Numbered from the stretch's first letter, positions 10,628 to 51,984 are shown. The stretch is 64,000 nt of DNA from Mesotaenium endlicherianum (GCA_009602735.1 WELA01001035.1:468961-532960), one strand, 5' to 3'. A program made the numbers and translations. Notes: generated by a model from the sequence alone, not told the origin.

Positions 10628-10661
<34 letters not shown>

Positions 10662-27312: not shown

Positions 27313-30300
27313 TGTAATGAATCAGTATAATAGTAGATTTAGTATTCATTTAAATATAATAGTTAATTAAGTTCAGCTTGCTGGACTCTAGTTAATAATC
27401 AGTCTGCTGGACTTTATATTAAATATCAATTTAATGACTCAGCCGGAAGCAGCAGGCTGAAGTCAACTTAAGTCAGCTTGCTAACAAATTCTTTGACAGC
27501 CAGCTGACTTCCGTTCTCGGTAGCAGCGAACTGCCTCGATATGCATCTAAGTGTGTATGCTAGATGAATGGCCAGATGACATCCCTATGATGGATGGCGA
27601 TTCGGGATGATGGGAGATGGCGGTAGATTTGGTTAACCGAGGTCCTACCAACGTGGTTAACTCCCGGGTAGGCGGTGCCATCGCACTGACCGTTGAACAG
27701 TAAACTCATTCCATGTACATATGCTAGGCATTGCTCTCGAGTTCGGCATTCGGAAACGAGGCCAACTCTCTTGTACAGCTTACTGAGAGAACTCTGAATC
27801 CAAGGCGAGAAGCCATTGATACGCACTGTCTTCTAACCTTGCTTATGTATGAGTTTACTGATTTGCATCATTGATGCTAGTTTACTCGCATTTGACTTAC
27901 GAGTATTATTCCCTGCTAGTGTATTGTCCTTTGCCGTTTAACTAGTTAACGGAAATACCATAAGATTACTTGCTGATATAAAGATCTTTATTAATTGTTA
28001 ATCGCCTATTTGGTAAGTCGATTCATTTCAGTGGTATCGGAGCAGTTATCACAGTCTTCTTTGTATGGTAAGGACAAGGTCTCAAACTAGCAACTCCCGA
28101 GACATGAAGAATCAGGATAACGAGAATGTAGAAAACCAGGCGGAAAGCCAATGTAGCGGGAACCCGTACCTATTCTGAAGCAGTGGCAGATGCTGCAGCT
28201 GCTATTGCCGCAGTCGCAGCACAGCAAGCTGAGGAGGAGAGAGCGAGATTAGAAGCTGAACAATTGGCAAAGGCTGCTGAAGATACAATAAGGAGGGAAG
28301 GTCAGCCCGCTGACGAGCGCACGGTTGAAGAACTTATGGTATCCAGGGCCAATGTTCTGAATCCACCTCCTGCTCTACAACTCAATGTACCCCTAGGTCA
28401 AATACGTGACCGGCTGAATGCGGCAGTAATTGCTGCTGCAGGAGCGAGAGGGACTGTTGAGGACACCACTCAGCGAGTAGATGCCAATGCTGCTGCTGCA
28501 TTTGCCAGACTACCACCAGAGTGTAGACTTGGGAGCATTGTACGTTCAAATGCAGTTGCAAATGGCGACCATGTATCAGTCCCAACAGGAGGACAAAAGA
28601 ATCATAATGTCTCTACCGCGAGACAGAGACCAACTGGGGTCTCAAACCATTAGTGGTGGTGGCCGAGGGCCTAGTAAGCCCAAGCCGAAACCTCCCAAGG
28701 ACTATGATCCTGAGGGAAACAGGAAATACTACCTGATCAAGTTTCTCGCGGATGTTGAGCAGTGGCTGGAGAACTACCCAGACCCGCAAGACTTCGAGAA
28801 GGTCAGGCACACTGGTGCACTACTGAAAGGCAGTGCCGCAGACTGGTGGCTGTACTGGAAAGAAGAGCGTAAGGCTCGGCAACTCCGTGACCCTACGTGG
28901 GTAGAGTTTGTTGAGAAGTTGCATGAGAAATTTGATGTCATCAACCAGCAGGAGAAAGCTATCTATGCGATGATCTCCCTGACACTGAAGCAGACCACTT
29001 CAGTTGCTGAGTTTGCACAAAAGTTCCAAGAGAACATGATGAAGCAGCCAGACTTGCCAGAATGGTATAGGATAGCATACTTCAGGTATGGCTTGGTATC
29101 CGAAGTCTCTGGTCATTTTGCTGAAAAGAAGTATGAAAAATTGGCTGACTTGATCCGGGATGCTGATGCCTGGGATCAGCAGCAGTTCAATCACAAGCGC
29201 CAGAGTAATGATTTGGTGTCTAAGATTGTCAAAAAAGCCCCACAGATCCTACAATGCAATTGGAGGAGACCAGACTGAGGATGATCAGGGTGATGCGTAC
29301 GAGTATGAGTATAATGCTATACAGCCTAGGGGGAGAGGTGGTTACTCTCGAGGTGGCCGTGGAAGAGGTGGTGGTAGGACTAAGCCGAGACCAGCCTCAT
29401 CAAAATCCGCTTGCTACCATTGTCAGCAGCTGGGTCACTATAGAGAACAGTGTCCAGACAAACACCTTCCGAAGGTCGAGAGAAATGACCAGCCTTTAAA
29501 AGACAGCAACAGTTAGTAATTTAGTCTACTGACTGTGAGGATGCTAGAGATAGTGAGTCGTCACTAGCTGCCCTCGTAGCAGGTATTATGGCTCCTGCTG
29601 AACTGGATTCACTATGCATGCCTGACAACCAGATAAAGGAGACCATCAGCAATATAGGCATCCAGAGAGTGCACACTCTCGATGCTCTTGTTCCACCTGA
29701 TGTCCAACATTTGTTTGCTAAGTCAGGAGAACAATGCGAAAGTCAGGAAAAGACAGTCCCCCCTATCCTACTGCATTGCATGATTGCAGGTAGGAAAGTG
29801 AGGGCATTTGTTGACGGAGGGGCGTCACATACCTTTATCCACAAGGACTTAGTTAAGCGGCTAAGGCTGCCTACTGTCACCCAAGGGAATAGAAAAATAT
29901 TCCTTGGAGATGCCTCATGTATCCCGCTCGGAGTTTTAACCACGCCCATTGAGGTCCAGTTAGGTTCTGGCATTGTAGTTCTAACTGAAACGCTTACATT
30001 TGAGGTACTCAACACTGGCTTCTATGATCTCGTGCTAGGCAGGTCCTGGCTTAATAGACATCAAGCTGAAGTGTGTTGGAGCAGAGGTACAGTTAAAGTG
30101 AGAGGAGCCAGTGATGGGCAGACTGACTTGGCACCCACCAGTGCTCTTCCTCTTGTCCTGTGTGGATGGCAAATGAAGGAAAAGAAGAGGCTTCCAGAAG
30201 GATGCAAGTTGCTGAATGCAATGGAGTTCGTCAAAAGCTGGAACCAGAAGGAAGACAGAATGTTCTGTCTGCTGCTAAGAGAGGTACCTCCTCCACCTGA

Positions 30301-33300
30301 AAAAGTGGTGGAGAAAAAGGTAAGCCCTCCGGAGCACCCTACTGCTGTAAAAATTGTTGCTCAGTACACGGATGTTTGTAATATGCCTCCAGGACTACCA
30401 CCTAAGAGGGAAGTAGATCATAGGATTGATTTATTACCTGGGAGTCAGCCACCCTGGCAACGAACCTACGGCTTGTCTTATGTGGAGAGCGAAGAGTTGA
30501 AAACACAGATTGCAGAGCTTGAGGAAATGGTTATATTTCACCCAGTTATTCACCATACGGCGCACCGATCCTATTTGTTAAGAAAAAGGATGGCAGTATG
30601 CGGATGTGTGTGGATTACAGAGCCCTGAACAAAATTACGGTAAAGAACAAGTATGCTTTACTTAGAATCGTGGACATGCTTGATACCCTGTCTGGTGCTA
30701 AGGTGTTCAGTAAGATAGATCTCAGGAGTGGTTATCATCAAATCAGAATTTGCTGAGGGGGATGAACACAAGACTGCCTTCCGCACACGTTATCGACACT
30801 ATGAGTTCATCGTGATGCCATTTGGACTGACTAATGCTCCTGCGACCTTCATGGGTGCTATGAATGACATGTTCAGGCCTTATTTGGATAAATTTGTGCA
30901 AGTTTTCTTGGATGATATTTTAATTTTCTCTAAAGATGAAGCTCAGCACGCTGCACACCTAAAGACAGTCATGGACACTCTGAGAAGAAATCATTTATAT
31001 GCTAAAACGAGCAAGTGTGATTTCTTTAAGGAAAGTATCGAATTCTTAAGCCACGTTGTCAGTAAAGAGGGCATCAGTGTGGATCCTAAGAAATTCCAGA
31101 CCATAAGGGACTGGCCAGTACCACAGTCGATCTCTGAAGTTAGATCCTTCCTCGGGTTGGCTAACTACTATAGGAGATTTATTGATAATTATTCCACAAA
31201 GGCCAGTAAACTGACTGACCTTACTAAGAAAGACATAGGGTATTTGTGGGGGGAAGAGCAGCAGGCTGCCTTCTAGACCCTTAAGGATGCCCTTTGTTTT
31301 GCCCCAGTGCTAGCTGTGTATGACCCCAGCAAACCGGTGCAGGTGGTCACGGATGCCTCTGACTTTGCCATGGGTGCTATTTTGTTGCAGCCTGCTGACA
31401 AAACCACAAAGGATGGTGAGGTAAAATAGGAGTGGCACCCTGTGCTGTACGAGTCTATATAATTCAATCCAGCGGAGATTAATTACGCAGTGCATGATAA
31501 AGAGCTGCTAGCTATCATTCATGTGCTCAAACAGTGGAGAGCATACTTACATGGTAAAGCTTTTAAGGTGATTACAGATCATCTAGCTCTGACTCACTTT
31601 CAAAATGAAGTCCAAGCTGTCAAGGAGGGAGAACCGCTGGAGCCAGATGCTGGAGCAGTTCCAAGTCCAGATCGACTACAAACCAGGGAAGTTGAATCTT
31701 GCTGATGCACTCTCTAGAAGACCTGACTTGCAAGAAAGAAACTTTAGTCAGCATGCTGTAGATAAAGTCCTGTGTGCACTCACTTCACTAAAGGTGAAAA
31801 AGTCCTTCCTTGAACAACTTAGGAAAGCCTATACCTTTCTGACCCGAAATTTGAGCCCAGCCCCACTACTGGTGTGTATCGTGCTACTGCACTCGGGTAC
31901 CGGCTTAAAGCAGGGGTCTGGGTGACTGAAACCACTTCAGGAAGGCTGAAGCTGGTCATTCCTAATAACTTGGAAATAAGGTCTCTTACTGAGTCAAGCG
32001 CATGACAGTTTACTGGGTGGTCATTTGAGGCCGGCCAAAACTGTTGGCAAACTGGCAAAACATTATCATTGGGAGGGGTTGCCCCGGGAGGTCTTGAAAT
32101 ATGTGAAGTCCTGTGATCAGTGTCAAAGAAATAAGTCTAGGCACACACCACCGGGAGGTCTCTTGCAACCNACACACCACCGGGAGGTCTCTTGCAACCA
32201 CTTCCCATCCCAGCTGGACGCTGGGAGACCATATCCATGGACTGGGTGGTCACACTAGCCTGCCAATGGGCACGATTCAATACTGGTAGTCGTGGATAAA
32301 TTGACAAAAATGGTCATTTTTATCCCCACAACTGTGAAAGTGACTGCACTCGAAACAGCGAGACAGTTCTATAACCATGTAGTATGCCAACATGGGCTTC
32401 CCTCTAATATCATCTCAGACAGAGACTCAAAATTTACCTCTAAGTTCTGGAGAGCTTTGATGGGGTTAATGGGAGTCAAACAGCTGATCAGCACAACTAA
32501 CTACCCTCAGACTGATGGGCAGACTGAAAGAACTAACCGAGTTTTGAAAGAGGTGCTGAGAGCATATATTAACCAAAAACAAAATAATTGGGATGACCTG
32601 TTGCCTCAAATTTAGTTTGCGGTCAACAGTGCGGTGCACGCGTCAACGGGCAAGACTCCTTTTGAACTCAGCCTGGGTAGAGTTCCTAAGTCTCCTTTAG
32701 ATGTGCTAGGGGAGTCTTTAACTCACCCTGACGCGATTGACAATCCGGTCTCCCTCCAGTTAACTCAGGATTTTGCTAACACCCTGTCAGAAGTCCAGCA
32801 GAACCAGCACAAAGCCCAATAAAACCAACAAAAGCACGCTAATCAGCACCATCGAGAACTGACCTTTTCTAAAGGCGATTTGGTCACACTGCATTCTCAA
32901 CACCTGTACCTTTCTGGTGTGGTCAAGAAAAAGCTTGGCCCTGTCTGGGTCGGTCCATATTCGATGGTACGCCGTGTCGGTCAGAATGCTTACAAAATGA
33001 ACATGTCAGCCGAATACAAGGGTCATCCGGTCTTTAATGTCTCCTTCCTGGAACCATACATCAAAGGTGATATACTGTTCACAGGTTGGTTACTTGTCCA
33101 ACTGAAACCGGTCCCCGCTGTCCGGGAAGGCGACCCTGAGGAATATGAGGTTGAGGAGATTTTAGACGCACGCTCGGTCCGTCGATCGTCTAAATATGTC
33201 ATGAAGTATCTCATTCGATGGAAGGGTCACGATGCCTCTGGGGACACTTGGGAATTTGAAGACCATTTGACTAATGCCAAAGAGGCGTTGAAACGGTTCC

Positions 33301-36223
33301 AGCTTCAGGCGGCTGGAGCACCTCCCTAACAGTCATTTCGGTTGACACGGGAAAGGGACAGGAGAACCTGTCTCCATTTGAGTTGGAGGGGAAAATCTAG
33401 GACACTTAGTGTGCGAGAGCGAGAAAGGCACAGTTATGTGAATCCTAAGTGTCAGCATAGTGACAGAGGGGACAGCCTGGCCCACATAAAGCACCTTTGG
33501 CTGAAGGAAAGAGGGCACAGCAATACATCACTTAACACACCAGGAAACACATTCATACGCTTATGTCTAGCGCACCGCAACTACGTCAACTCCTAGCAAT
33601 CACCCTGTAAGGTAAACAGGAACGAATATACCATATTAATACGAACTTCCTCCCTTCCTGCAACTCCTATGACAAAGAGCGATATCCCACTGACTTGTGC
33701 CCTGGTTGCATGTGCGAAATGGCTTCCACCACACAAAAGGAGGACAGACAGCGCAAGGCAGAAGAAGCCAGGAGGACAATGGAGCAATACCAGAAGGAGC
33801 TGGCGGCCACGTCCCTCACCAGGATAGAACAAGAACAGGTCCGCAAACAACAGGAGGCGGCAAAAGAGGCACAGAGGAAGAAGGATCGGGAAGCGGAAAA
33901 CCTCAGGAAAGCTGAGGAGGAGAGACAGAAGAAACAACAAGAAGAAGCGGCAGCGACAGAAGAGGAGAGAAGGAAAAAGGCTGAAGCGGACAGGCAGAAG
34001 AGCTTGGCCACTTACTGGTATACTGTGATGGGTGGCCAAAATTTTGATAACCTGAAGGAAGCATTGCTGGCAGCCCAGGAGATCAACAAGCTGGAACAGA
34101 CAACACTGCTACAGAGGGAAGGAACTGCAGCACTGGATAGGTACATTGAGACACACATAGGTGTGGTCCTCTACGAGGATCATGCCAAGATGGTGGGCTA
34201 CACAGCAGATCAGGCCCGGTACCCCACCGATGATTCAGAGGACAAGCCAGTCCCAATAACGGAAATAGTGGGAGATCAAAGACTCATCAGGATGGTGAGC
34301 ATGCGGCCCGATAGCTTTTAGGATACGGTATTCTACCTCACACTATTGCTAGCTTACAACAAAGTTGAGAGAAGGAGCTGGGAGTACTTGGCCAGGGAAG
34401 CAGGACAACAGATGTTCTCTCCCCACTGGTTCCCATGTAAACTGAGGAAGGCTGAGCATGGACCCCAGTACTACCAACAGCCAACAGATTGGAGGTGGAT
34501 GACCGTCACAAACAAAAAGCAGGAGTGTGACCGAGCCCAACCAGACGATTTCCACTATGGCCTAGACGGCTACCTCATCCTACCACCTCACATTGCCCCT
34601 TGGGACCCCAGGCTGAATGGCTGCCTGAGCAATATGAATGCAGAGACCAAAGAGCACAGGAGGAGGGGGAGAGACTACTTCTCTAAGGGAAAGCATGCCT
34701 TCGTCAAATGGGCGAAGAATGCAGGCCAGATAGATATCAGCAGGCTGAAGGCCAAGCAACCCCCAGCGCGCCCTAAGAAAGGGAGGTCAGTAGACTACTC
34801 CATGTCTACCAGGGAGCAGGACGACTTAGTGGACGAGACTCCTACTCTCTCAGAGGAGGAGGATGAGGAGGATGAGCAAGAAGAACAAGGCAGAGGAGAA
34901 GCATCAGGAGCTGGTACTCAGGAGACCCAGGGGCAGGCAGGGGCACTCCTTAAGGAACCAAGATCAGGCGTATGGAACGTGATCCCGGTCATGGAGGCAA
35001 CTAGACCCCGCACTCGCTCCCCCCGTCTACCTGCCCAAGCAGGGAAAGAAGCTGATCTGACTGTACTTGGCAGCAGACACAGGCAGAAATCTCCAGAGGA
35101 CAGGGCTGCCAGGAGAGGAACACGCGGGGTGGCCAGAGGTATGCCAGCCTCCCCCTTTGCTCAGGGACATGTACCTCTTGCCGATGTATTTTAGCATCCT
35201 ACTGGAATGCCTGTCTATGTGGGGATCAACACTCAAGTGGTTGAATAGCAGGCTACCATCCTTCGTTCTCCTCGAGGTCCAACTCTTGAACAAACGGGGT
35301 TCTTCAGGAGGCTAGCTAACAGACTTAGAGGGCTGTCTAGATCTAGGTCCAGATCTCCGTCTTCTGATCCTGAAGCCCCAGGAACAACCCCTTAGGTGAC
35401 AAGCTGAAGAGGCAGTTGGTGGGGAAGGCTGGACAGGTTCAGTTCCCTTATTTTAAAACTTCTGCAGTTTAATGTTGTCGAGGCGACAACAAGTTGAGGG
35501 ATTGTAATGAATCAGTATATTAGTAGATATAGTTATTATTTAAATATAATAGTTAATTAAGTTCAGTCTGCTAGACTCTAGTTAGTAATCAATCTGCTGG
35601 ACTTTATATTAAATATCAGCTTAATGACTCAGCCAGAAGCAGCAGGCTGAAGTCAACTTAAGTCAGCTTGCTGACACATTCTTTGACAGCCAGCTGACTT
35701 CCGTACTCGGTAGCAGCGAACTGCCTAGATATGCATCTAAGTGTGATATGCTAGATGAATGGCCAGATGACATCTCTATGATGGATGGCGATTCGGGATG
35801 ATGGGAGATGGCGGTGGATTTGGTTAACCGAGGTCCTACCATCGTGGTTAACTCCCGGGTAGGCGGTGCCATCGCACTAACCGTTGAACAGTAAACTCAT
35901 TCCATGTACATATGCTAGGCATTGCTCTCAAGATCGGCATTCGGAAACGAGGCCAACTCTCTTGTACAGCTTACTGAAAGAGATCTGAATCCTAAGGCGA
36001 GAAGCCATTGGTACGCACTGTCTTCTAACCTTGCTTATATATGAGTTTACTGATTGCATTATTGATGCTAGTTTACTCGCATTTGACTTCCGAGTATTAT
36101 TCACTGCTAGTGTGTTGTCCTTCGCCGTTTAATCAGTTAACGAAAAATACCATAAAAATTACTTGCTGATATAAAGATCTTTATTAATCGTTAACCGCCT
36201 ATTTGGTAAGTCGATTCATTACA
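27313..36223 (+). mobile_element. Ty3/gypsy chromovirus copy B (full length, pseudogenised), inserted in the gag of copy C
   Basis: LTRs 27313-28030 and 35503-36223. TSD AGGAG at 27308-27312 and 36224-36228. PBS at 28032. gag, pol and ORF3 are broken by stops and frameshifts. Confidence 0.93.
33719..35395 (+). pseudogene. ORF3 of chromovirus copy B (premature stops)
   Basis: Near-identical to ORF3 of copy A, with in-frame TAG at 34319, 35192 and about 35246. Confidence 0.85.
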
Positions 36224-39200: not shown

Positions 39201-40528
39201 AGGCTGAAGCTGGTCATTCCTAATAACTTGGAAATAAGGTCCCTCATACTGAGTCAAGCACATGACAGTTTACTGGGTGGGCATTTGGGGCAGGCCAAAA
39301 CTGTTAGCAACCTGGCAAAACATTATCATTGGGATGGGTTGCCTCGGGAGGTCTTGAAATATGTTAGGTCCTATGATCAGTGTCAGAGAAATAAGTCTAG
39401 GCACACACCACTCGGGGGTCTCTTACAACCAACGCCCATCCCAGCGAGACGCTGGGAAATAATATCTATGGACTGGGTGGTAACACTACCAAGAACTGCC
39501 AAAGGGCATGATTTGATACTGGTAGTAGTGGTAAACTGAAAAAAAATGGTCATTTTCATCCCCACCACTGTCAAAATAACCGCACTCGAAACTGCGAGAC
39601 AGTTCTACAACCATGTAGTATGCCAACATGGGCTACCCTCTAATATCATCTCAGACAGAGACTCAAAAATTCACCTCTAAGTCCGGGAGGTTAATGGGAG
39701 TCAAACAGTTGCTCAGCACAGCTGTAATGAATCAGTATATTAGTAGATATAATATTCATTTAAATATAATAGTTAATTAAGTTCAGCCTGCTGACCTTTA
39801 GTTATTAGTCAGTTTGCTAGACTCTAGTTAATAGTCAGTTTGCTGAACTTTACTTAATAGTCAGTCTGCTGGACTTTACATAATTATCAGTTTGCTGACT
39901 CAGTGGAAAGCAGCAGGCTGAAAGTCCATATAAGTCAGCTTGCTGACACATTCTTTGACAGCAAGCTGACTTCCGTACTCGGTAGCAGCGAACTGCCTTG
40001 ATATGCATCTAAGTGCGATATGCTAGATGAATAGCCAGATGACATCCCTATGATGGATGGCTATTCGGGATGATGGGAGATGGCGGTGGATTTGGTTAAC
40101 CGAGGTCCTACCAACGTGGTTAACTCCCGGGTAGGCGGTGCCATCGCACTGACCGTTGAACAGTAAACTCATTCCATGTACATATGCTAGGCATTGCTCT
40201 CGAGTTCGGCATTCGGAAACGAGGCCAACTCTCTTGTACAGCTTACTGAGAGAGATCTGAATCCAAGGCGAGAAGCCATTGATACGCACTGTCTTCTAAC
40301 CTTGCTTATGTATGAGTTTACTGATTTGCATCATTGATGCTAGTTTACTCGCATTTGACTTACGAGTAGTATTCCCTGCTAGTGTATTGTCCTTTGCCGA
40401 TTAACGAATTAACGGAAATACCATAAAGATTACTTGCTGATATAAAGATCTTTATTAATTGTTAATCGCCTATTTGGTAAGTCGATTCATTTCAGTGGTA
40501 TCGGAGCAGTTATCACAGTCTTCTTTGT

Positions 40529-42007
40529 ATGGTAAGGACAAGGTCTCAAACTAGCAACTCCCGAGACATGGAAAACCAGGATAACGAGAATGTCGAAAAC
40601 CAGGCGGAAAGCCATGTAGCGGGAAACCGTACCTATTCGGAAGCAGTAGCGGATACTGCAGCTAGGGAGGCTGCAGATGAGGCAGCTGCTATTGCCTCAG
40701 TCGCAGCTCAGCAAGCTGAGGAGGAGATAGCCAGACTAGAAGCTGAACAAGTAGCAAAGGCCGCTGAAGATATACAAAGGAGGGAAGGACAGCCAGCTGA
40801 CGAGCGCACTGTTGAAGAACTTATGGCATCAAGGGCCAATGTTCTGAACCCACCTCCTGCCGTACAACTCAATGTACCCCTAGGTCAAATACGTGACCGG
40901 CTGAATGCGGCAGGAATTGCTGCTGCAGGAGCAAGAGGGATTGTTGAGGACACTACTCAGCGAGTAGATGCCAATGCTGCTGCTGCATTTGCTAATCTAC
41001 CACCCCAAAATGTAGACTTGGGAGCATTGTTCGTTCAGATGCAGTCGCAAATGGCGACCATGTATCAGTCCCAGCAGGAGGACAAAAGAATCATAATGTC
41101 CCTACTCCGGGACAGAGACCAACTGGGGTCTCACACCACTAGTGGTGGTGGCCGAGGGCCTAGTAAGCCCAAGCCGAAACCTCCCCAGGACTATGATCCT
41201 GAGGGAAACAGAAAATATTACCTGATCAAGTTTCTCGCGGATGTTGAGCAGTGGCTGGAGAACTACCCAGAACTGCAAGATTACGAGAAGGTCAGGCACA
41301 CCGGTGCGCTACTGAAAGGCAGTGCCGCAGACTGGTGGCTTTACTGGAAGGAAGAGCGTAAGGCTCGGCAACTCGGTGACCCTACGTGGGTAGAGTTTGT
41401 CGAGAAGTTGCATGAGAAGTTTGATGTCATCAACCAGCAGGAGAAAGCTATCTATGCGATGATCTCCCTGACACTGAAGCAGACCACTTCAGTTGCTGAG
41501 TTTGCTCAAAAGTTCCAAGAGAACATGATGAAGCAGCCTGATTTGCCAGAACGGTATAGGATAGCATACTTCAGGTATGGCTTGAAATCCGAGGTCTCTG
41601 GTCATTTTGCTGAGAAAAAGTATGAGAAACTGGCTGACTTGATCCAGGATGCTGACGCCTGGGATCAGCAGCAGTTCAATCACAAGCGCCAGAGTAACGC
41701 TTTGGTGTCTAAGATTGTCAAAAAGCCCCACGGTTCCTACAATGCAGTTGAAGGAGACCAGGCTGAGGATAATCAGGGTGATGAATATGAGTATGAGTAC
41801 AATGCTATTCAGTCTAGAGGTAGAGGTGGTCCCTCTCGAGGTGGCTATGGAAGGGGTGGTGGTAGGACTAAGCCGAGACCAGCCTCAGCAAAATCTACTT
41901 GCTACCATTGTCAGCAGAAAGGCCACTACAGAGAACAGTGTCCGGTCAAGCACCTGCCTAAGGTCGAGAGAAAAGACCAGCCTTTAAAAGACAGCAACAG
42001 TCAGTAA
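40529..42007 (+). CDS. gag: Gag (492 aa)
   Basis: LKGSAADWW...WVEFVEKL...[10 protein letters not shown] retrotransposon gag core, RGG-rich region and [14 protein letters not shown] zinc knuckle. Confidence 0.95.
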
Positions 42008-45000
42008 TCCAGTCTACTGACTGTGAGGATGCTAGAGATAGTGAGTCGTCACTAGCTGCCCTCGTAGCAGGTATTATGGGTCCTGCTGAACTGGATTCAC
42101 TATGCATGCCTGACAACCAGATAAAGGAGACCATCAGCAATATAGACGTCCAGAGAGTGCACACTCTGGATGCTCTTGTTCCACCTGATGTCCAACATTT
42201 CTTTGCTACGTCAGGAGAACAATGCGAAAGTCAGGAAAAGACAGTCCCCCCTATCCTACTGCATTGCATGATTGCAGGTAGGAAGGTGAGGGCATTTGTT
42301 GACGGAGGGGCGTCACATACTTTTATCCACAAGGACTTAGTTAAGCGGCTAAGGCTGCCTACTGTCACCCAAGGGAATAGAAAAATATTCCTTGGAGATG
42401 CCTCAAGTATCCCGGGAGGAGTTATAACCAAGCCTATTGAGGTCCAGTTAGGTTCTGGCATTGCAGTTCTAACTGAAACGCTTACATTTGAGGTACTCAA
42501 CACTGGCTTTTATGATCTCGTGCTAGGCAGGTCCTGGCTTAATAGACATCAAGCTGAAGTGTGTTGGAGCAGAGGTACAGTTAAAGTGAGAGGAGCCAGT
42601 GATGGGCAGACTGACTTGGCACCCACCAGTGCTCTTCCTCTTGTCCTGTGTGGATGGCAAATGAAGGAAAAGAAGAGGCTTCCAGAAGGATGCAAGTTGC
42701 TGAATGCAATGGAGTTCGTCAAAAGCTGGAACCAGAAGGAAGACAGAATGTTCTGTCTGCTGCTAAGAGAGGTACCTCCTCAACCTGAAGAAGTGGTTGA
42801 GAAAAAGGTACACCCTCCGGAACACCCTACTGCTGCAAACATTGTTGCTCAGTACACGGATGTGTTTAATATGCCTCCAGGACTACCCCCTAAGCGGGAA
42901 GTAGATCATAGGATTGATTTATTACCTGGTAGCCAGCCACCCTGGCAACGCACGTATGGCTTGTCTTATTTGGAGAGTGAGGAGTTGAAAACACAGATTG
43001 CAGAGCTGGAGGAAAATGGTTACATTTCTCCCAGTAAATCACCGTACGGCGCACCTATCCTATTTGTTAAGAAAAAGGATGGCAGTATGCGGATGTGTGT
43101 GGATTACAGAGCCCTGAACAGAATTACAGTAAAGAACAAGTATGCTTTACCCAGAATCGAGGACTTGCTTGATACCCTGTCTGGCGCTAAGGTGTTCAGT
43201 AAGATAGATCTCAAGAGTGGTTATCATCAAATCAGAATTGCTGAGGGGGATGAACACAAGACTGCTTTCCGCACACGTTATGGACACTATGAGTTCAACG
43301 TGATGCCATTTGGACTGACTAATGCTCCTGCTACCTTTATGGGTGCTATGAATGACATTTTCAGACCTTATTTGGATAAGTTTGTGCAAGTTTTCCTGGA
43401 TGATATTTTAATTTTCTCTAAAGATGAAGCTCAGCACACTGAACACTTAAAGAAAGTGCTGGACACTCTGCGGAAAAATCACTTGTATGCTAAGATGAGC
43501 AAGTGTGATTTCTTTAAAGAAAGTATTGAATTCTTAGGCCACGTTGTCAGTAAAGAGGGCATCAGTGTGGATCCTAAGAAAGTCCAGACCATAAGGGACT
43601 GGCCAGTACCACAGTCTGTCTCTGAAGTTAGATCCTTCCTCGGGTTGGCTAACTACTATAGGAGATTTATTGTGAAGTATTCCACAAAGGTCAGTAAACT
43701 GACTGACCTTACTAAGAAAGACATTGGGTATGTGTGGGGGGAAGAGCAGCAGGCTGCCTTCCAGACCCTTAAAGATGCCCTTTGTTCTGCCCCAGTGCTA
43801 GCCGTGTATGACCCCAGCAAACCGGTGCAGGTGGTTACTGATGCCTCTGATTTTGCCATGGGTGCTATTTTGTTGCAGCCTGCTGACAAAACCACAAAGG
43901 ATGGTAAGGTACGGCAGGAGTGGCATCCTGTGTTGTATGAGTCTATGAAATTTAATCCAGCGGAGATTAATTACTCAGTGCATGATAAAGAGCTGCTAGC
44001 TATCATTCATGTACTCAAACAGTGGAGAGCATACTTACATGGTAAAGCTTTTAAGGTGATTACAGATCATCTAGCTCTGACCCACTTTCAGAAGAAGTCC
44101 AAGCTGTCGAGGAGGGAGAACCGCTGGAGCCAGATGCTGGAGCAGTTCCAAGTCCAGATCGACTACAAACCAGGGAAGTTGAATCCTGCTGATGCACTCT
44201 CTAGAAGACCTGACTTGCAAGAAAGGAACTTTAGTCAGCATGCTGTAGATAAAGTCCTGTGTGCACTCACTTCACTAAAGGTGAAAAAGTCCTTCCTTGA
44301 ACAACTTAGGAAAGCCTACCTTTCTGACCCAACATTTGAGCCCAGCCCCACTACTGGTATGTGTCGTGCTACCGCACTCGGGTATAAGCTCAAGGGAGGG
44401 GTCTGGGTGACTGAAACCACTTCAGGCAGGCTGAAGCTGGTCATTCCTAATAATTTGGAAATAAGGTCTCTCTTACTGAGTCAAGCTCATGACAGTCTCC
44501 TGGGTGGACATTTGGGGCAGGCCAAAACTGTTGGCAAACTGGCAAAACATTATCATTGGGAGGGGTTACCCCGGGAGGTCTTGAAATATGTCAAGTCCTG
44601 TGACCAGTGTCAGAGAAATAAGTCTCGGCACACACCACCCGGAGGTCTCTTGCAACCGCTACCCATCCCAGCGGGACGCTGGGAAACTATATCCATGGAC
44701 TGGGTGGTCTCACTACCAAGAACTGCCAACGGGCATGATTCAATACTGGTAGTCGTGGATAAACTGACAAAAATGGTCATTTTTATCCCCACAACTGTCA
44801 AAGTGACTGCACTCGAAACAGCGAGACAGTTTTACAACCATGTAGTATGCCAACATGGGCTCCCTTCTAATATCATCTCAGACAGAGACTCAAAATTCAC
44901 CTCTAAGTTCTGGAGAGCTTTAATGGGGTTAATGGGAGTCAAACAGCTGCTCAGCACAGCAAACCACCCTCAGACTGATGGGCAGACTGAAAGAACTAAC

Positions 45001-45792
45001 CGAGTTCTGCAGGAGGTGCTGAGAGCATATATTAACCAAAAACAAGATAATTGGGATGACCTGTTGCCTCAAATTCAGTTTGCGGTCAACAGTGCGGTGC
45101 ACGCGTCAACGGGCAAAACTCCTTTTGAACTCAGCCTGGGTAGAGTCCCTAAGTCTCCTCTAGATGTGCTAGGGGAATCTTTAACTCACCCTGAAGGGAT
45201 TGACAACCCGGTCTCCCTCCAGTTAACTCAGGAGTTTGCTGACACCCTGTCAGAAGTCCAACGAAACTTGCACACGGCCCAAGAAAACCAACAAAAATAC
45301 GCTAATCAACACCGTCGGGAACTGACATTTTCCAAGGGGGATTTAGTCAAACTGCATTCTCAGCACCTGTACCTCCCTGGTGTGGTCAAGAAAAAGCTTG
45401 GCCCTGTCTGGGTCGGTCCATATTCGGTGGTCCGTCGTGTCGGTCAGAATGCTTACAAACTGAACATGTCAGCTGAATACAAGGGGCACCCGGTCTTTAA
45501 TGTCTCCTTCCTGGAACCGTACATCAAAGGTGATACACTGTTCACAGGTCGGTTCCCTGTCCAACCGGGACCGGTCCCCGCTGTCCGGGACGGCGACCCT
45601 GAGGAATATGAGGTCGATGAGATTTTAGACGCTCGCTCGGTCCGTCGATCGTCTAAATATGTCATGAAATACCTCATTCGATGGAAGGGTTACGATGCCT
45701 CTGGGGACACTTGGGAGTTTAAGGACCACTTGACCAATGCCAAAGGGGCGTTGACACGGTTCCACCTTCGGGCCGCTGGAGTCCCTCCATAA
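41962..45792 (+). CDS. pol: Pol polyprotein: protease, reverse transcriptase, RNase H, integrase, chromodomain
   Basis: FVDGGAS (PR), [29 protein letters not shown] (RT), [17 protein letters not shown] (RH), HHCC plus DDE integrase, WVGPY (GPY/F), and chromodomain EEYEVDEIL...[16 protein letters not shown]. First ATG at 42076, but the frame is open from 41962. Confidence 0.97.
41983..42024 (+). promoter_or_regulatory. Putative -1 programmed ribosomal frameshift signal (gag to pol)
   Basis: In-frame slippery heptamer T TTA AAA (41983-41989), 7-nt spacer, then a perfect 10-bp stem ACAGTCAGTA/TACTGACTGT (41997-42024). The pol frame (-1) is open from 41962. Confidence 0.8.
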
Positions 45793-46059
45793 CTGTCATT
45801 TCAGTTGACACGGGAAGGTGACAGGCGGTCCTGTCTCCATTTAAGTTGGAGGGGAAAATATATGACAGTTAGTGAGCGAGAGCGATAAAAACACACTCAT
45901 ACGTTTATGTGTAGCGCATCGCAACTACGTCAACTTTTAGCAATCATCCTGTAAGGTAAACAGCAGCGAAGCCACTATACTAAATACTAACATACTTCCT
46001 GCAATCCCTATGACAAAGGTCCATATCCTACTAACTTGTGCCCTGGTTACATGTGCAGG

Positions 46060-47736
46060 ATGGCGCCCACCACACAAAAGGAGGACAGAAAGCGCAAGGC
46101 AGAAGAAGCCAGGAGGACAATGGAGCAATACCAGAAGGAGCTGGCGGCGACGTCCCTCACCAGGAGAGAACAAGAAAGGGTCCGCAAACAACAAGAGGCG
46201 GCAGAAGAGGCACAGAGGAAGAAGGATCAGGAAGCGGAAAACCTCAGGAAGGCTGAGGAGGAGAGACAGAAGAAACAGCAAGAAGAAGCGGCAGCGGCAG
46301 AAGAGGAGAAAAGAAAAAAGATTGAAGCGGACAGACAGAAGAGCTTGGCCACTTACAGGTATACTGTGGTGGGTGGCCAAAACTTCGATAACCTGAAGGA
46401 AGCATTGCTGGCAGCCCAGGAGATCAACAGGCTGGAACAGACAACACTGCTACAGAAGGAAGGAGCTACAGCACTGGACAGGTACATCGAGACACACACC
46501 GGCGTGGTCCTTTACGAAGATTATGCTAAGATGGTGGGCTATACAGCAGAGCAGGCCCGGTATCTCGCAGATGATTCAGAGGACAAGCCGGTCCCCATAC
46601 CGGGAATAGTGGGAGATCAGAGACTCATCCGGATGGTGAGCATGCGGCCCGATAGCTTTAAGGATACGGTATTCTACCTCACACTCCTGCCAGCTTACAA
46701 TGAAGTTGAGAGAAGGAGCTGGGAGTACTTGGCCAGGGAAGCAGGACAGCAGATGTTCTCTCCCCACTGGTTCCCGTGTAAACTGAGGAAGGCTGAGCAC
46801 GGACCCCAGTACTACCAGCAGCCAACAGACTGGAGGTGGATGACCGTCACAAATAAGAAGCAGGAGTGTGACCGAGCCCAACCGGATGACTTCCACTATG
46901 GCCTAGACGGCTATCTCATCCTACCACCTCACATTGCCCCTTGGGACCCCAGGCTGAATGGATGCCTGAGCAATATGAATGCAGAGACCAAGGAACATAG
47001 GAGGAGGGGAAGAGACTACTTCTCTAAGGGAAAGCATGCCTTTGTCAAATGGGCAAAGAATGCAGGCCGGATAGATATCAGTAGGCTGAAGGCCAAGCAA
47101 CCTCCAGCGCGCCCTAAGAAAGGGAGGTCGGTAGACTACTCCATGTCTACTAGGGAGCAGGACGACTTAGTGGACGAGACCCCTACTCTCTCCGAGGAGG
47201 AGGATGAGGAGGATGAGGAAGAAGAACAAGGCAGAGGAGAAGCATCAGCAGCAGGTACTCAGGATACCCAGGGACAGGCAGTGGCACTTCCTAAAGAACC
47301 ACGATCAGGTGTGTGGAATGTGATCCCCGTTATGGCGACAACTGGACCCCGCGCTCGCTCCCCCAGCCCACCTGCCCAAGCAGGGGAAGAAGCTGATCTG
47401 ACTGTATTGGGCAGCAGACACAGGCAGAAATCCCCAGAGGACAGGGGTGCCAGAAGAGGGACACGCGGGTGGGCCAGAGGTATGCCAGCCTCCCCCTCCG
47501 CTCAGGGGCATGTACCTCTAGCCAATGTATTTCAGCATCCTACTGGAATGCCTGTCTATGTGGGCATCAACACCCAAGTGGTTGAAGAGCAGGCTACCAT
47601 CCTTCGTTCTCCTCGAGGTCCAACTTTAGAGCAAACAGGGTTCTTTAGAAGGCCAGCTGACAGACCTAGAGGGCTGTCCAGATCTAGGTCCAGATCTCCG
47701 TCCCCTGATCCTGAAGCCCCAGGAACCACCCCTTAA
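46060..47736 (+). CDS. ORF3, an uncharacterised accessory protein (~558 aa) between pol and the 3' LTR
   Basis: Long intact ORF in copy A with homologues in B and C. E/K/R/Q coiled-coil N-terminus, aromatic-rich conserved core, acidic/RS-rich disordered tail. Confidence 0.85.
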   Translation: MAPTTQKEDRKRKAEEARRTMEQYQKELAATSLTRREQERVRKQQEAAEEAQRKKDQEAENLRKAEEERQKKQQEEAAAAEEEKRKKIEADRQKSLATYRYTVVGGQNFDNLKEALLAAQEINRLEQTTLLQKEGATALDRYIETHTGVVLYEDYAKMVGYTAEQARYLADDSEDKPVPIPGIVGDQRLIRMVSMRPDSFKDTVFYLTLLPAYNEVERRSWEYLAREAGQQMFSPHWFPCKLRKAEHGPQYYQQPTDWRWMTVTNKKQECDRAQPDDFHYGLDGYLILPPHIAPWDPRLNGCLSNMNAETKEHRRRGRDYFSKGKHAFVKWAKNAGRIDISRLKAKQPPARPKKGRSVDYSMSTREQDDLVDETPTLSEEEDEEDEEEEQGRGEASAAGTQDTQGQAVALPKEPRSGVWNVIPVMATTGPRARSPSPPAQAGEEADLTVLGSRHRQKSPEDRGARRGTRGWARGMPASPSAQGHVPLANVFQHPTGMPVYVGINTQVVEEQATILRSPRGPTLEQTGFFRRPADRPRGLSRSRSRSPSPDPEAPGTTP

Positions 47737-49839
47737 GGTGACAGGCTGAAAAGATAGTCAGTAAGGGAGGCTGGTCAGGGTCAGTTTCTTTATTTAAAGC
47801 TTTTGCAGTTTAATGTTGTCGAGGCGACAACAAGTTAAGTTGGAGGGATTGTAATGAATCAGTATATTAGTAGATATAATATTCATTTAAATATAATAGT
47901 TAATTTAGTTCAGCCTGCTGAACTTTAGTTAGTAGTCAGCCTGCTGAACTTTAGTTAATAATCAGTCTGCTGGACTTTACATAATTATCAGTTTAATGAC
48001 TCGGCCAAAAGCAGCAGGCTGAAGTCAACTTAAGTCAGCTTGCTGACACATTCTTTGACAGCCAGCTGACTTCCGTACTCGGTAGCAGCGAACTGCCTTG
48101 ATATGCATCTAAGTGCGATATGCTAGATGAATAGCCAGATGACATCCCTATGATGGATGGCTATTCGGGATGATGGGAGATGGCGGTGGATTTGGTTAAC
48201 CGAGGTCCTACCAACGTGGTTAACTCCCGGGTAGGCGGTGCCATCGCACTGACCGTTGAACAGTAAACTCATTCCATGTACATACGCTAGGCATTGCTCT
48301 CGAGTTCGGCATTCGGAAACGAGGCCAACTCTCTTGTACAGCTTACTGAGAGAGATCTGAATCCAAGGCGAGAAGCCATTGATACGCACTGTCTTCTAAC
48401 CTTGCTTATGTATGAGTTTACTGATTTGCATTATTGATGCTAGTTTACTCTCATTTGACTGACGAGTAGTATTCCCTGCTAGTGTATTGTCCTTTGCCGT
48501 TTAACGAGTTAACGGAAATACCATAAAGATTACTTGCTGATATAAAGATCTTTATTAATTGTTAATCGCCTATTTGGTAAGTCGATTCATTTCAACAGCA
48601 AACCACCCTCAGACTGATGGGCAGACTGAAAGAAATAATCGAGTTCTTGCAAGAGGTGCTGAGAGCATATATTAACCAAAAACAAGATAATTGGGATGAC
48701 CTGTTGCCTCAAATTCAGTTTGCGGTCAACAGTGCGGTGCACGCGTCAACGGGCAAGACTCCTTTTGAACTCAGTCTGGGTAGAGTCCCTAAGTCTCCTT
48801 TAGATGTACTAGGGGAGTCTTTCATTCACCCTGAGGGAATTGACAATCCGGTGTCTCTCCATTTAACTCAGGAATTCGCAAACACCCTGTCAGAAGTCCA
48901 ACACAATTTGCACAAAGCCCAGGAAAATCAACAAAAATACGCTAATCAACACCGTCGGGAGCTGACATTTTCAAAGGGCGATTTGGTCAAACTGCATTTT
49001 CATCACCTGTACCTATTTGGTGTGGTCAAGAAAATGCTTGGTCCGGTCTGGGTCGGTCCATATTCGGTGGTGCGCTGTGTTGGTCAAAATGCTTACAAAT
49101 TGAATACAAGGGTCCTTCCTGGAATCATACATCAAAGGTGACACACTGTTCACAGGTCGGTTACCTGTCCAACTGGGTCCGGTCCCCGCTCTCCGAGAAG
49201 GTGACCCTGAGGAATATGAGGTTGATGAGATTTTAGAAGCTCGCTTTGTCCGTTGATCCTCTAAATATGTCATGAAATATCTGGTCAGATGGAAGGATTA
49301 CGATGCCTCTGGGGACACCTGTGAATATAAGGACCATTTGACCAATGCCAACTAGGCGTTGAAACGATTTTACCTTCGGGAGGTTGGGATACCTCGTTAA
49401 CTGCCATTTTAGTTAACATGGGAAGGTATGTGACAGGACGTCCTGTCTCCATTAAGTTGGAGGGGAAATTTGGCCAAACGTGGCCTAAAGTGACAGTTAG
49501 TGACAGATGTCAGAAAGTGACAGTAGTCGACTGTGAGAGACAATTGTGACAGGCAGCCCAGTAACAGTTGAAACAGGCAACCCACCTTAAACTTGAAGTT
49601 GGAGGGAGTGGGATAAACATCTCAAAAACTAGCCGGTTACCGATTGCCGTTGCATATTCATCCTTGACACTCAACTACGCTCACACTCACTTCCCTCTCA
49701 AGCACACTCGCACTTCCAATTTACTTACACCCGGTATTGCATGCCCTAACCCCCTCTACTACGTTCTTCCCTGTCAAAGTACTCAATCTTGTGCATGATG
49801 TCATGACTACACTAACTCCATTGTGGTGTGAGTGAGCAA

Positions 49840-51512
49840 GATGACTCAATTGTCTAAACTCAAGAGGAAAAGAAGGGCGGACAAGGCACAGGCGGAGTAT
49901 AAGGAGTTCCATGGCGACATCAAATCATCCTCCATCTCTTCTTGAGAATTAGAGCGACTCCGACTACAGCGGGAGGCTCAGAAGAGGAAGGAGGATGAAG
50001 AACAAGCCAGACTGAGACAAGAGGAGCAGGATAGAAATGTTGCAGAGGACGCCAAGAAGGCGGAGGAACAAAGGTTGGCTGAGGAGAGGCAGAAGCGGCA
50101 GGCTGAGGAGGAACAGAGGAGAATCAAAAGCTACCGTTACACGGTGATGGGCAAGAGCTTTGATCTTTTGGAGGAGGCCTTCAAGTACGCCCAAAGGAAC
50201 CAAAGTGACTCACAGATGGACATACTGCAGCGGGAATGGGAGACAGCCCAAGGTTTTGACAAGTACATAGAAGTCAGTACAGGGCTTCTACTGTACCATG
50301 ACTATGCCAGGATGGTGGAATTTACGATCCGGGAGGCCAAAGCATTGGCCCAGATTGGTGAATCTGAAACGGTGCCAATACCTAGGATCTGGGACAAAGG
50401 CAGGGTCTTCAGGTTGATCCCTATGCATACAGACAGCTTCAAGGATGCCACTTTCCACAACCGGTTCAAGGCCATGCATAACGAGGTGGGGAGAAGAAGC
50501 TGGGAGTTTTTGGCAAGGGAGATCAGCCAATTGGATTTCTCAGGTCACCGGTACCCCTGTACTTTGAAGAGGTCGGATTCTGCTTTCTTTCTACAGCCCA
50601 CTGACTGGCGCTGGATGACCATCACTATGAAGGACCAGCAAAATGACAGAGCCGAGGAAGACAATTTTCTGGCAGATCTGCTGGGGAAGATAGTGCTGCC
50701 ACCTCACATTGCAGCATGGGACCCAAGGCTGAATGGAGTCAGGGATTGCATGAGTCAGGAGACACAGGAGGATAGGACCACGGCTAGAGATTCTTTCTCT
50801 GAGGGGAAGCAAGCTTATGCCAAATTGGCAAGTAAGCAAGGGGAGAAAAGACCTGTATGCTGTCAGGTACCAGCAACCCCCACCTGCACCCAAAAGGGGG
50901 AGGTGCGTGGAATACTTCTTTTCTCGGGAACGGCTGGAGGAGATGACCAAAGAGACTCCAGACGTCTCAGAGAAACAAGAGGACAAAGAGGAGGAAGGCG
51001 CCGGAGAGGAGGCTAGTCCTGTTGAGGCACAGACCCCTGCTACATCCCCCGCTCTACAGCAGACTGGAAGTGCCGTTGCACAAGCAGCCCTGCAGCAGCT
51101 GGGGGATACCAGCCCACCAAGAGATCCAAATCTCCAGTGGCTGGAGAGTTTCAGCAGGAAGAGTTTCACCCCAGGAGGTGAGACTCAGTCAGACAGAGCA
51201 GACAGAGGGGCTGCCAAGGAGGCAGCCAGAGGGCAACCAGCATCCCCCTCTCATAGAGGGCATGTAACCTTAGCCCATGTCATGCAGCACCCCTCCGGTA
51301 TGCCAGTGTATGTCCCTGTCAGTTTGAGAGCTGCACAGGAGAGAGAGCGGTCTCCATCAACTTGCAGACAGTGCAAGAGCAGGCTGCCCAACTGTTGCAT
51401 TCACCCCTTGGTTCACCCTGGTCTAAGCCTCCAGGTTTCAAGAGACCATCAGACAGGAGAAGGATCCGATTCCAGGTCTCACTCCCCAAAAGACCGAGCT
51501 CCTGGTACTTAG
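49840..51512 (+). pseudogene. Divergent ORF3 homologue of copy C (frameshifted)
   Basis: Shares YRYTVxG, NEVxRRSWExLARE, QPTDWRWMT, LPPHIAxWDPRLNG and QHPxGMPVYV with ORF3 of A and B. Confidence 0.8.
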
Positions 51513-51984
51513 TTTGCTGTTGTTTTTGTTTTAGATTTAGTTGGTTGTGTTGCATGTATGTTACTTTGTTGTAAATAAAAATAGAATTGTTGTCAAGTCA
51601 ACAACAATTTAAGTTGGAGGGACTGTAATGAATCAGTATATTGGATAGATATAATATTCATTTAGATATAATAGTTAAATAAGTTCAGCTTGCTGAACTT
51701 TAGTTAATATTTAGTCTGCTGTATTTAAGTCTGCTGGATATTTGGTACATACTTAAATGACTCAGACGAGAGTAGCAGGCCAAAGTCAAATAGGTCAACC
51801 TGCTGACTTGGATTAGCTTGCTGACGCATTCTTTCACAGTCAACTGGCTGCCGTACTCGGCAGCAGCAAACAGCGTAGGTATGCATCTAAGTGTGGTGTG
51901 CTAGATGAGTGGCCAGATGACTCCCTTATGGTTGATGGCAATTCAGGATGATGGGAGATGGCTGTGGGTTTGGTTAGCCAAGGT

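Follow-up and report, generated by a model that had tools for sequence, protein, structure and literature searches.

The window, by which we mean the whole 64,000-nucleotide stretch of Mesotaenium endlicherianum DNA analysed here, contains three related LTR retrotransposons, A, B and C (Table 1). Element A shows the features that define a chromovirus (Ty3/gypsy), namely the PR-RT-RH-INT order, LTRs, a primer binding site (PBS), a polypurine tract (PPT) and a target site duplication (TSD). The PBS, TGGTATCGGAGC, is of the Met-tRNA type by established knowledge. The chromodomain at the integrase C-terminus (residues 1216-1268) matched PF00385 with E=2e-8, above the cut-off; it is of group I, and aromatic residues of the cage type are visible in it. 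Between this chromodomain-ending pol, which stops at 45792, and a PPT-like motif at 47837, element A carries an open sense frame of 558 codons (ORF3), which starts 267 nt past the pol stop and is separate from the polyprotein.

A tblastn search of the window with ORF3 gave exactly three matches: A itself (100%), B (33719-35392), with 91.4% identity across 558 aa, and C (49856-51509), where 36.7% identity across residues 7-537 is spread over two frames. Three stops, at codons 201, 492 and 510, interrupt the copy in B; the copy in C is broken by a stop close to its 5' end and by a frameshift around 50.9 kb. These matches bear out the first-pass annotation, which had reported a sense ORF after the chromodomain and before the PPT in three copies, intact in A. 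The three are not equal members of one family, however, the version in C being deeply diverged.

The LTRs of A are 96.9% identical (K2P 0.032). Their differences fall mostly in U3 (39723-40100 versus 47850-48200): the first half holds 17 of the 23 substitutions, and there is also one additional unit of the 26-bp repeat, which has 3.2 copies in the 3' LTR (47910-47991) and varies in number across the six LTR copies. As gag, pol and ORF3 are all intact, this suggests that the LTRs of A were already unlike when the element inserted.

Table 1. Coordinates of elements A, B and C and of the features of ORF3 and its surroundings.
Feature	Position	Strand	Basis or remark
Element A, full-length chromodomain Ty3/gypsy LTR retrotransposon, 8.87 kb, 5-bp TSD ACAGC	39723-48594	+	inserted in pol of C
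5' LTR of A (TG...CA)	39723-40494	+	
26-bp tandem repeat in U3 of A 5' LTR, 4.2 copies	39789-39898	+	
Candidate splice donor G/GTAAGT in U5, before PBS (inferred)	40476-40482	+	all five complete LTR copies, 89-97% alike
PBS TGGTATCGGAGC, Met-tRNA type	40496-40507	+	
gag of A, intact (Ty3_capsid, Retrotrans_gag, zinc knuckle)	40529-42007	+	Pfam
pol of A, intact (PR-RT-RH-INT-SH3-chromodomain), overlaps gag in different frame	41962-45792	+	Pfam
Hairpin GACAGG-N4-CCTGTC (kept in A, B, C), then inner PPT-like motif AAGTTGGAGGG; left cassette border	45820-45858	+	
Non-coding spacer of A	45859-46059	+	
Candidate branch point CTAAC and acceptor TGTGCAG/G	46029-46058	+	motif position in three copies
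ORF3 of A, 558 aa, intact, orphan	46060-47736	+	translation, selection test, homology searches
ORF3 aa 1-95, long E/K/R/Q/A-rich helix, charged single-helix-like, RKRK and KRKK	46060-46344	+	predicted helix, composition
ORF3 aa 96-345, conserved core, without confident fold	46345-47094	+	
ORF3 acidic tract	47173-47240	+	
ORF3 aa 483-501, island GHVxLAxVxQHPxGMPVYV	47506-47562	+	A versus C comparison
ORF3 RS/SP-rich tail	47677-47706	+	
Hairpin and outer (3') PPT-like motif AAGTTGGAGGG; right cassette border	47814-47849	+	
3' LTR of A	47850-48594	+	
Element B, decayed, TSD AGGAG	27313-36223	+	inserted in gag of C
ORF3-B, three stops	33719-35395	+	inside element B
Element C backbone (5' LTR, gag, pol), split by B and A	25652-49468	+	close to A and B
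Divergent cassette of C: inner PPT-like motifs 49454 and 49596, spacer, ORF3-C 49841-51512 (broken), hairpin, outer motif 51611	49454-51622	+	
U3 of C 3' LTR, truncated	51624-51984	+	81-85% identical to other LTRs

The ORF3 protein and the selection acting on it

The N-terminal 90 residues of ORF3 are 82% E/K/R/Q/A and were modelled as a helix at pLDDT 70-92 (AlphaFold2, single sequence). The first-pass annotation had described this region as a coiled coil. Since only 6 of the 90 residues from 6 to 95 are L/I/V/M/F and 23 E-K/R pairs stand at i,i+4 in this stretch, a charged single alpha-helix fits better, and this is what the N-terminus looks like. The core that follows is 48% identical between A and C, with invariant H236, C240 and H291 and many invariant R, D and E residues. 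All the motifs quoted in the earlier description are present in A, and they fare unequally in the other copies: QPTDWRWMT is unchanged in all three copies; A and C have LPPHIAxWDPRLNG and QHPxGMPVYV in common, the latter being interrupted in B by a stop on the Q; the tail SRSRSRSPSP is complete in A only, B reading SRSRSRSPSS and C SRSHSP. Apart from the island at residues 483-501, the tail has diverged between A and C. Basic NLS-like motifs (RKRK, KRKK and PARPKKGR) were found together with Arg-rich patches and SP/RS sites. Neither a transmembrane segment nor a signal peptide was detected from hydropathy and N-terminal charge, the best 19-residue Kyte-Doolittle mean being 0.73 and the N-terminus charged. 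Having no hydrophobic segment, ORF3 does not look Env-like, in agreement with the first-pass annotation. No long tandem array was found in it.

The ratio dN/dS between A and B was 0.17 for ORF3 (Nei-Gojobori, 555 codons; 95% interval of pN/pS 0.13-0.27), with 0.32 in the N-terminus, 0.11 in the core and 0.21 in the tail, and the differences at the first, second and third codon positions numbered 29, 22 and 77. For comparison, gag gave 0.15 and pieces of pol 0.15-0.30, while one piece of C with frameshift edges gave 0.68. Identity of the core between A and C stays at 48% although synonymous sites are near saturation. These comparisons, which involve the three copies A, B and C, indicate that ORF3 is a gene under purifying selection, with a constraint like that of gag. 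A value near 1, named beforehand as the outcome that would speak against an accessory gene, was not obtained. ORF3 could otherwise be seen as a neutral passenger, either a frame that its composition happens to keep open or a piece of host sequence that was captured and is decaying: its N-terminus and tail are of low complexity, and two of the three copies are broken. However, gag and pol of B and C are broken as well, constraint extends over all three parts of ORF3 with an excess of third-position changes, and the core has kept its similarity at synonymous saturation. We therefore regard the neutral reading as largely refuted already and give it scarcely any credence.

By sequence, ORF3 is an orphan, with no relative detectable in the databases searched. 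A word-indexed protein search with residues 90-350 returned 3697 candidates (lengths 306-977), none at E<=1e-3, and a search with the A/C alignment 7216 candidates (lengths 140-457), none at E<=1; these searches covered two length windows of a database of 5.8 billion clusters. A phmmer search of 1.84 billion representatives gave no match at E<=1e-3. ORF3 was absent from 212 stretches of metagenome contigs and from 58 viral contigs, and 80 related metagenome loci contained no homologue, the single match having E=0.21. There was no match in PHROGs or NCBIfam; Pfam matches were all below the cut-off, with no RNA-binding or other domain, and the best value in the Atlas was 0.85, with none after it. 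PDB profile matches to ALR (E=0.47) and to Vpx (E=1.3, over an RRSWEY stretch) were judged to be due to chance. A match to an already described TE domain, the other outcome held in advance to be adverse, was thus seen in none of the Pfam, PDB, sequence and Atlas searches. AlphaFold2 gave a pLDDT of 42 from the single sequence and of 40 from a four-row alignment, and fold searches with these models reached at best Z 4.6 (VIA-align) and E 0.05 (Foldseek, viral). As both models are poor, these searches neither show nor exclude a known fold.

We also looked past the chromodomain in related loci. At least 1500 nt follow it in 16 of the 44 loci with a matched chromodomain region. Among ten ORFs scanned there, seven were Gag by Pfam, belonging to the next unit, and three had no match; of these, one ends in a knuckle-like motif (L036), one follows gag (L033) and one is 151 aa long (L029). 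None of the ten is thus a clear 3' extra ORF.

The cassette between two PPT-like motifs and its candidate splice sites

The motif AAGTTGGAGGG ahead of the 3' LTR of A (47837) recurs about 50 nt past the pol stop (45843). It is found at 49454, 49596 and 51611 in C, and the inner site of B is a one-base variant. A small hairpin precedes each PPT-like motif, the significance of each being modest (z -0.4 to -2.6). In five related loci (L039, L054, L062, L079 and L080, inspected by eye), a purine run and a likely LTR start lie at most about 130 nt past the chromodomain. As the inner motif occupies the position of the only PPT of these related elements, it is likely to be the original 3' PPT.

Comparison of A with C revealed an abrupt change at these motifs. 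Identity ran at 0.82-0.98 from the pol end as far as the inner motif, fell to about 0.6 inside the cassette and was 0.79-0.91 past the outer motif. Within the ORF3 core, 28 of 42 fourfold sites differed, saturation lying at 0.73; the corresponding figures were 102 of 481 for gag-pol (p=2e-9 for the difference from the core) and 23 of 107 for the adjoining pol end (p=6e-7). Between A and B there was no comparable gap (35 of 226 in ORF3, 37 of 357 in gag-pol), so that ORF3 is not simply hypermutable. The U3 of C is only K=0.20-0.22 from those of A and B. With both flanks of ORF3-C close to the A family and a cassette far older, two versions would circulate on one backbone, and the near-saturated divergence of the C cassette beside a close gag-pol suggests that cassettes were swapped. 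Exchange of the cassette between element lineages is, from this pattern of divergence, very probable. The LTRs of C differ from each other (K=0.166), its 5' LTR being nearer to the 5' LTR of B (0.091). Because its LTRs differ, its 3' LTR is truncated and its TSD is not checkable, C may be a dead chimera formed after insertion instead of a transposed recombinant. This would touch the left breakpoint, but leaves the young U3 beside the old cassette unexplained.

The paired motifs offer a possible route for such an exchange. In EVADE and Ty1, central PPTs prime extra plus strands (PMC7197481). The inner PPT of A, probably the original 3' PPT, would now be usable as a central PPT; the pair would supply homology and a strand break, and cassettes would be exchanged in reverse transcription or by ectopic recombination. 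If the cassette was exchanged at a duplicated PPT, simple retrotransposons would have a way to acquire accessory genes and to pass them among each other, comparable to the capture of env. With two very different natural versions on one backbone, swap tests could also separate the protein from its target.

The spacers are enriched in TGACAG, with three copies in A and six in C (a level reached by none of 300 shuffles); the enrichment is not seen in B. TGACAG is a site of the TALE-homeodomain (KNOX/BELL) type, and the copies in the C spacer (49454-49610) are possibly a stage-specific enhancer.

Lying at the 3' end of the element, ORF3 needs an mRNA of its own. Besides the candidate donor in U5, a second GGTAAG overlaps the start of gag (40531). 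On the acceptor side, a CTRAC motif ends exactly 24 nt upstream of the ATG in all three copies (CTAAC in A and C, CTGAC in B), while the spacers of A and C barely align. In shuffled C spacers this spacing arose with a frequency of 0.003 when exact and 0.034 within 5 nt, the motif having been seen before the test. The sequence in A is TGTGCAG/GATG, and C has an AG right before the ATG. Among eight host acceptors read in the window, three have CTGAC upstream and three end in TGCAG, as in A. Splicing between the U5 donor and the acceptor next to the ATG would remove the PBS, gag and pol, leaving a non-replicating ORF3 mRNA. The position and spacing of these motifs make it reasonably probable that ORF3 is expressed from an env-style spliced mRNA with the U5 donor. 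Two points weigh against this: the dead copy B has no AG, and the test of the branch motif came only after the motif had caught attention. The CTRAC motif is possibly part of an internal promoter for ORF3 instead. A Gag-ORF3 fusion, made by joining the donor at the gag ATG (40531) to the acceptor of A, was considered and dropped, the ORF3 frame being mismatched.

Relation to known extra ORFs and possible functions

A third ORF is reported for the fungal chromovirus CfT-1. According to the REXdb summary, 18% of 782 Tekay chromoviruses have a forward 3' extra ORF, whereas no element of Chlamyvir (44), Tcn1 (1500), Reina, Galadriel or CRM has one, with the proviso that its per-element tables could list rare algal cases (PMC6317226). 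The statement of the first-pass annotation that chromoviruses normally encode only gag-pol is therefore overstated. ORF3 has the features that define an eORF-3'F, being of at least 250 codons, sense-oriented, placed after pol and before the 3' LTR, apart from the polyprotein and not a tandem repeat. Like the plant eORF-3'F or aORF-3S of Tekay, SIRE, Athila and Bagy2 (PMC7264820 and the summary in PMC6317226), it is conserved over copies and divergent; splicing is reported for 3' sense ORFs of Bagy2 (PMC7264820). Unlike these, ORF3 has no transmembrane segment and no similarity to the Pfam families of those ORFs, lies between two PPT-like copies, is dimorphic on one backbone, and belongs to an element that falls, with weak support, among algal chromoviruses, where the REXdb summary has such an ORF in 0 of 44 Chlamyvir. 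The RT-RH region of A is at most 62% identical to any sequence found, and in a quick tree of 58 rows, made without REXdb references and with the short row P0034 excluded, A grouped with Closterium, Haematococcus, Nannochloris and unnamed chromodomain elements with weak support (80-86). Together with the GC-rich, repeat-laden introns of the host gene in the window, these neighbours would suit a green alga, possibly a streptophyte, as host. A resembles Chlamyvir, as outlined in REXdb, in its group-I chromodomain, 5-bp TSD, size (5.3-11.4 kb in the clade) and Met PBS (41% of the clade), Tcn1 being self-priming. It differs in having the extra 3' ORF and in the overlap of gag and pol in different frames, which in Chlamyvir are split by one stop. 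The sunflower Tekay group-2 aORF is likewise a chromoviral extra ORF of about 400 aa, with an NLS, helices and long disorder, conserved over copies, but it lies 5' of gag and not after the chromodomain (PMC11728184). Our literature search, which covered mainly freely accessible papers, found no description of ORF3 or of a PPT-bracketed ORF in an algal chromovirus. We conclude that ORF3 is a genuine accessory gene and an orphan. As a kind, 3' extra ORFs are known, while this lineage, protein and PPT-bracketed dimorphic cassette were not found in the literature searched.

The function of ORF3 can be approached by analogy. The first-pass annotation had proposed an element-encoded nuclear accessory factor, of which the selected, non-Env accessory ORF with NLS-like motifs is borne out; the PPT-bracketed cassette and the candidate splice signals had no place in it. 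If the whole of gag-pol is an intron, the full-length RNA would be an intron-retaining transcript and must escape splicing and nuclear retention. Retroviral Rev provides an analogy for a role in RNA export. We tentatively favour a nuclear factor acting on the element's own RNA, with an export or anti-splicing role like that of Rev or CERV: ORF3, with its basic patches, its RS/SP tail and a folded core on a long helix, would bind the full-length RNA and promote its export or block its splicing. Were its target to lie in the spacer inherited along with it, this would account for the joint movement of protein and cassette. CERV is a 517-aa orphan made from a spliced mRNA of the C. elegans LTR element Cer1, has a KRKK NLS and is required for export of the gRNA (PMC10309623). 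It shares with ORF3 the nature of an orphan accessory protein of about 520-560 aa in a Ty3/gypsy-type element, an N-terminal helical region, flexible linkers, KRKK, phosphorylation-type SP sites and, as we infer for ORF3, a spliced mRNA. CERV differs in sharing exons with gag and in its Cys loop and GTPase-like domain, whereas ORF3 follows pol with its own ATG and shows no detectable similarity to it; the function is demonstrated for CERV (PMC10309623) and predicted for ORF3. No sequence similarity of ORF3 to CERV or Rev appeared in Pfam, the 1.84 billion representatives or the PDB, and the fold model is poor. Several observations weigh against the RNA-export role. No RRE-like structure stands out in A, where 20 of 136 windows fold at z<=-2, none of them in the spacer, and Rfam gave no match to A; no RNA-binding domain was detected in ORF3, whose models have a pLDDT of about 40; the pure RS repeat is short and lost in C; and two ancient versions are also what would be expected from an arms race with silencing.

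That last point leads to a DNA-binding anti-silencing factor or transactivator, which would bind the U3 or spacer repeats and keep the LTR active or unmethylated. The foamy-virus protein Tas is a transactivator of this sort. VANC of the VANDAL transposons is a TE-encoded accessory protein whose element has short tandem repeats in its non-coding parts; unlike ORF3, it belongs to dicot DNA transposons and resembles MAIN (PMC13547354, PMC11728184). The 26-bp U3 repeats of variable copy number, the TGACAG repeats in the A and C spacers, the acidic tract with the NLS-like motifs and the deeply diverged pair of versions would all suit such a factor, as would a beta-beta-alpha unit at residues 100-122, the best-predicted part of the core (pLDDT 57-64). 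The LTR has a CpG observed/expected of 0.79 and the coding parts one of 0.30-0.49, but reduced CpG loss in LTRs is commonplace. We place this role close behind RNA export, although by itself it is less likely than not. Two points weaken it: Pfam and PDB sequence searches gave no VANC/MAIN-type or other DNA-binding family (the fold not being usable), and the U3 regions are only K ~0.2 apart between cassette types with proteins 37-48% alike, where tight co-divergence of protein and target would be expected. An undetected enzyme fold in the core, or a poison/antidote-like selfish module, appears improbable. Invariant H, C, D and E residues and W-rich motifs would be in line with, for example, a metal-dependent nuclease or modifier (through H236, C240, H291 and acidic residues), GC3 of 0.57-0.58 in ORF3 versus 0.48-0.50 in gag-pol hints at another origin, and retroelements do capture enzymes, as the methyltransferase-bearing neighbour in the window illustrates. 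Against it, no match was found in the 1.84 billion representatives, Pfam, the PDB or the Atlas, and invariance is weak evidence when drawn from two divergent sequences.

A cofactor of the particle or pre-integration complex, acting in nuclear import across an intact nuclear envelope, integrase tethering to chromatin or as a VLP scaffold, is quite improbable. The long rigid helix could serve as a spacer, the NLS-like motifs and the gag-like strength of selection would fit, and ORF3 adjoins a central-PPT-like motif, central PPTs being tied to nuclear import elsewhere (PMC7197481). However, pol already has a chromodomain with aromatic-cage residues, and a partner of conserved Gag or integrase could hardly be replaced, with the backbone unchanged, by a version only 37% identical. 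The env position and the likely env-style splicing would suggest a protein that is Env-like or serves cell-to-cell movement, which we consider very improbable given the missing signal peptide, the low hydropathy, the strong charge and the lack of a viral fold match to the low-confidence model (pLDDT 40).

The features of A could be joined into a wider and more speculative picture, which we think unlikely to hold in full. An algal chromovirus would have turned into a "complex" retroelement, in which a duplicated PPT flanks a slot for interchangeable cargo. This slot would be occupied by a regulatory orphan that brings along a splice acceptor and target repeats; its two old versions, 37% identical, would be shuffled onto one replicating backbone by central-PPT-driven recombination, and the protein would have a new fold used in RNA export or counter-silencing. 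The literature leaves open what non-Env extra ORFs do in LTR retrotransposons of the plant lineage (PMC7264820, PMC6317226), a question for which ORF3 is useful, being intact in a near-complete element, selected at the level of gag and provided with a predicted splice junction.

Other features of the window

At 21430-25650 (+), a decayed retroelement with gag- and protease-like parts precedes a domain of the C5 DNA methyltransferase family (PF00145, E=1e-7 at 24810-25157, PCQ motif); element C cuts it off, and its RT was not seen in the window. DNMT-bearing Gypsy elements of Klebsormidium resemble it (PMC5890265). The 3' LTR of C is truncated by a decayed ORF at 51990-53640 (+), with a GLTGASSTYPCLWC motif and a C2H2-like finger, for which Pfam and PDB gave weak zinc-finger matches only. 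The ORF is reminiscent of RAG1/Transib-like transposases. A 4.7-kb element at 16769-21429 (+) has 709-bp LTRs 98% identical to each other, a Met-type PBS at 17480, a purine tract and no long ORF; this LTR element is probably non-autonomous. Inverted repeats that form two overlapping pairs (14243-14452 with 14906-15111, and 15236-15364 with 15872-16000) are likely MITE-like DNA elements. Finally, a multi-exon host gene for a plant-type alpha/beta-hydrolase lies at 5820-11480 (-); its introns are GC-rich and laden with repeats, and several of its donors are GT without the usual AAG.
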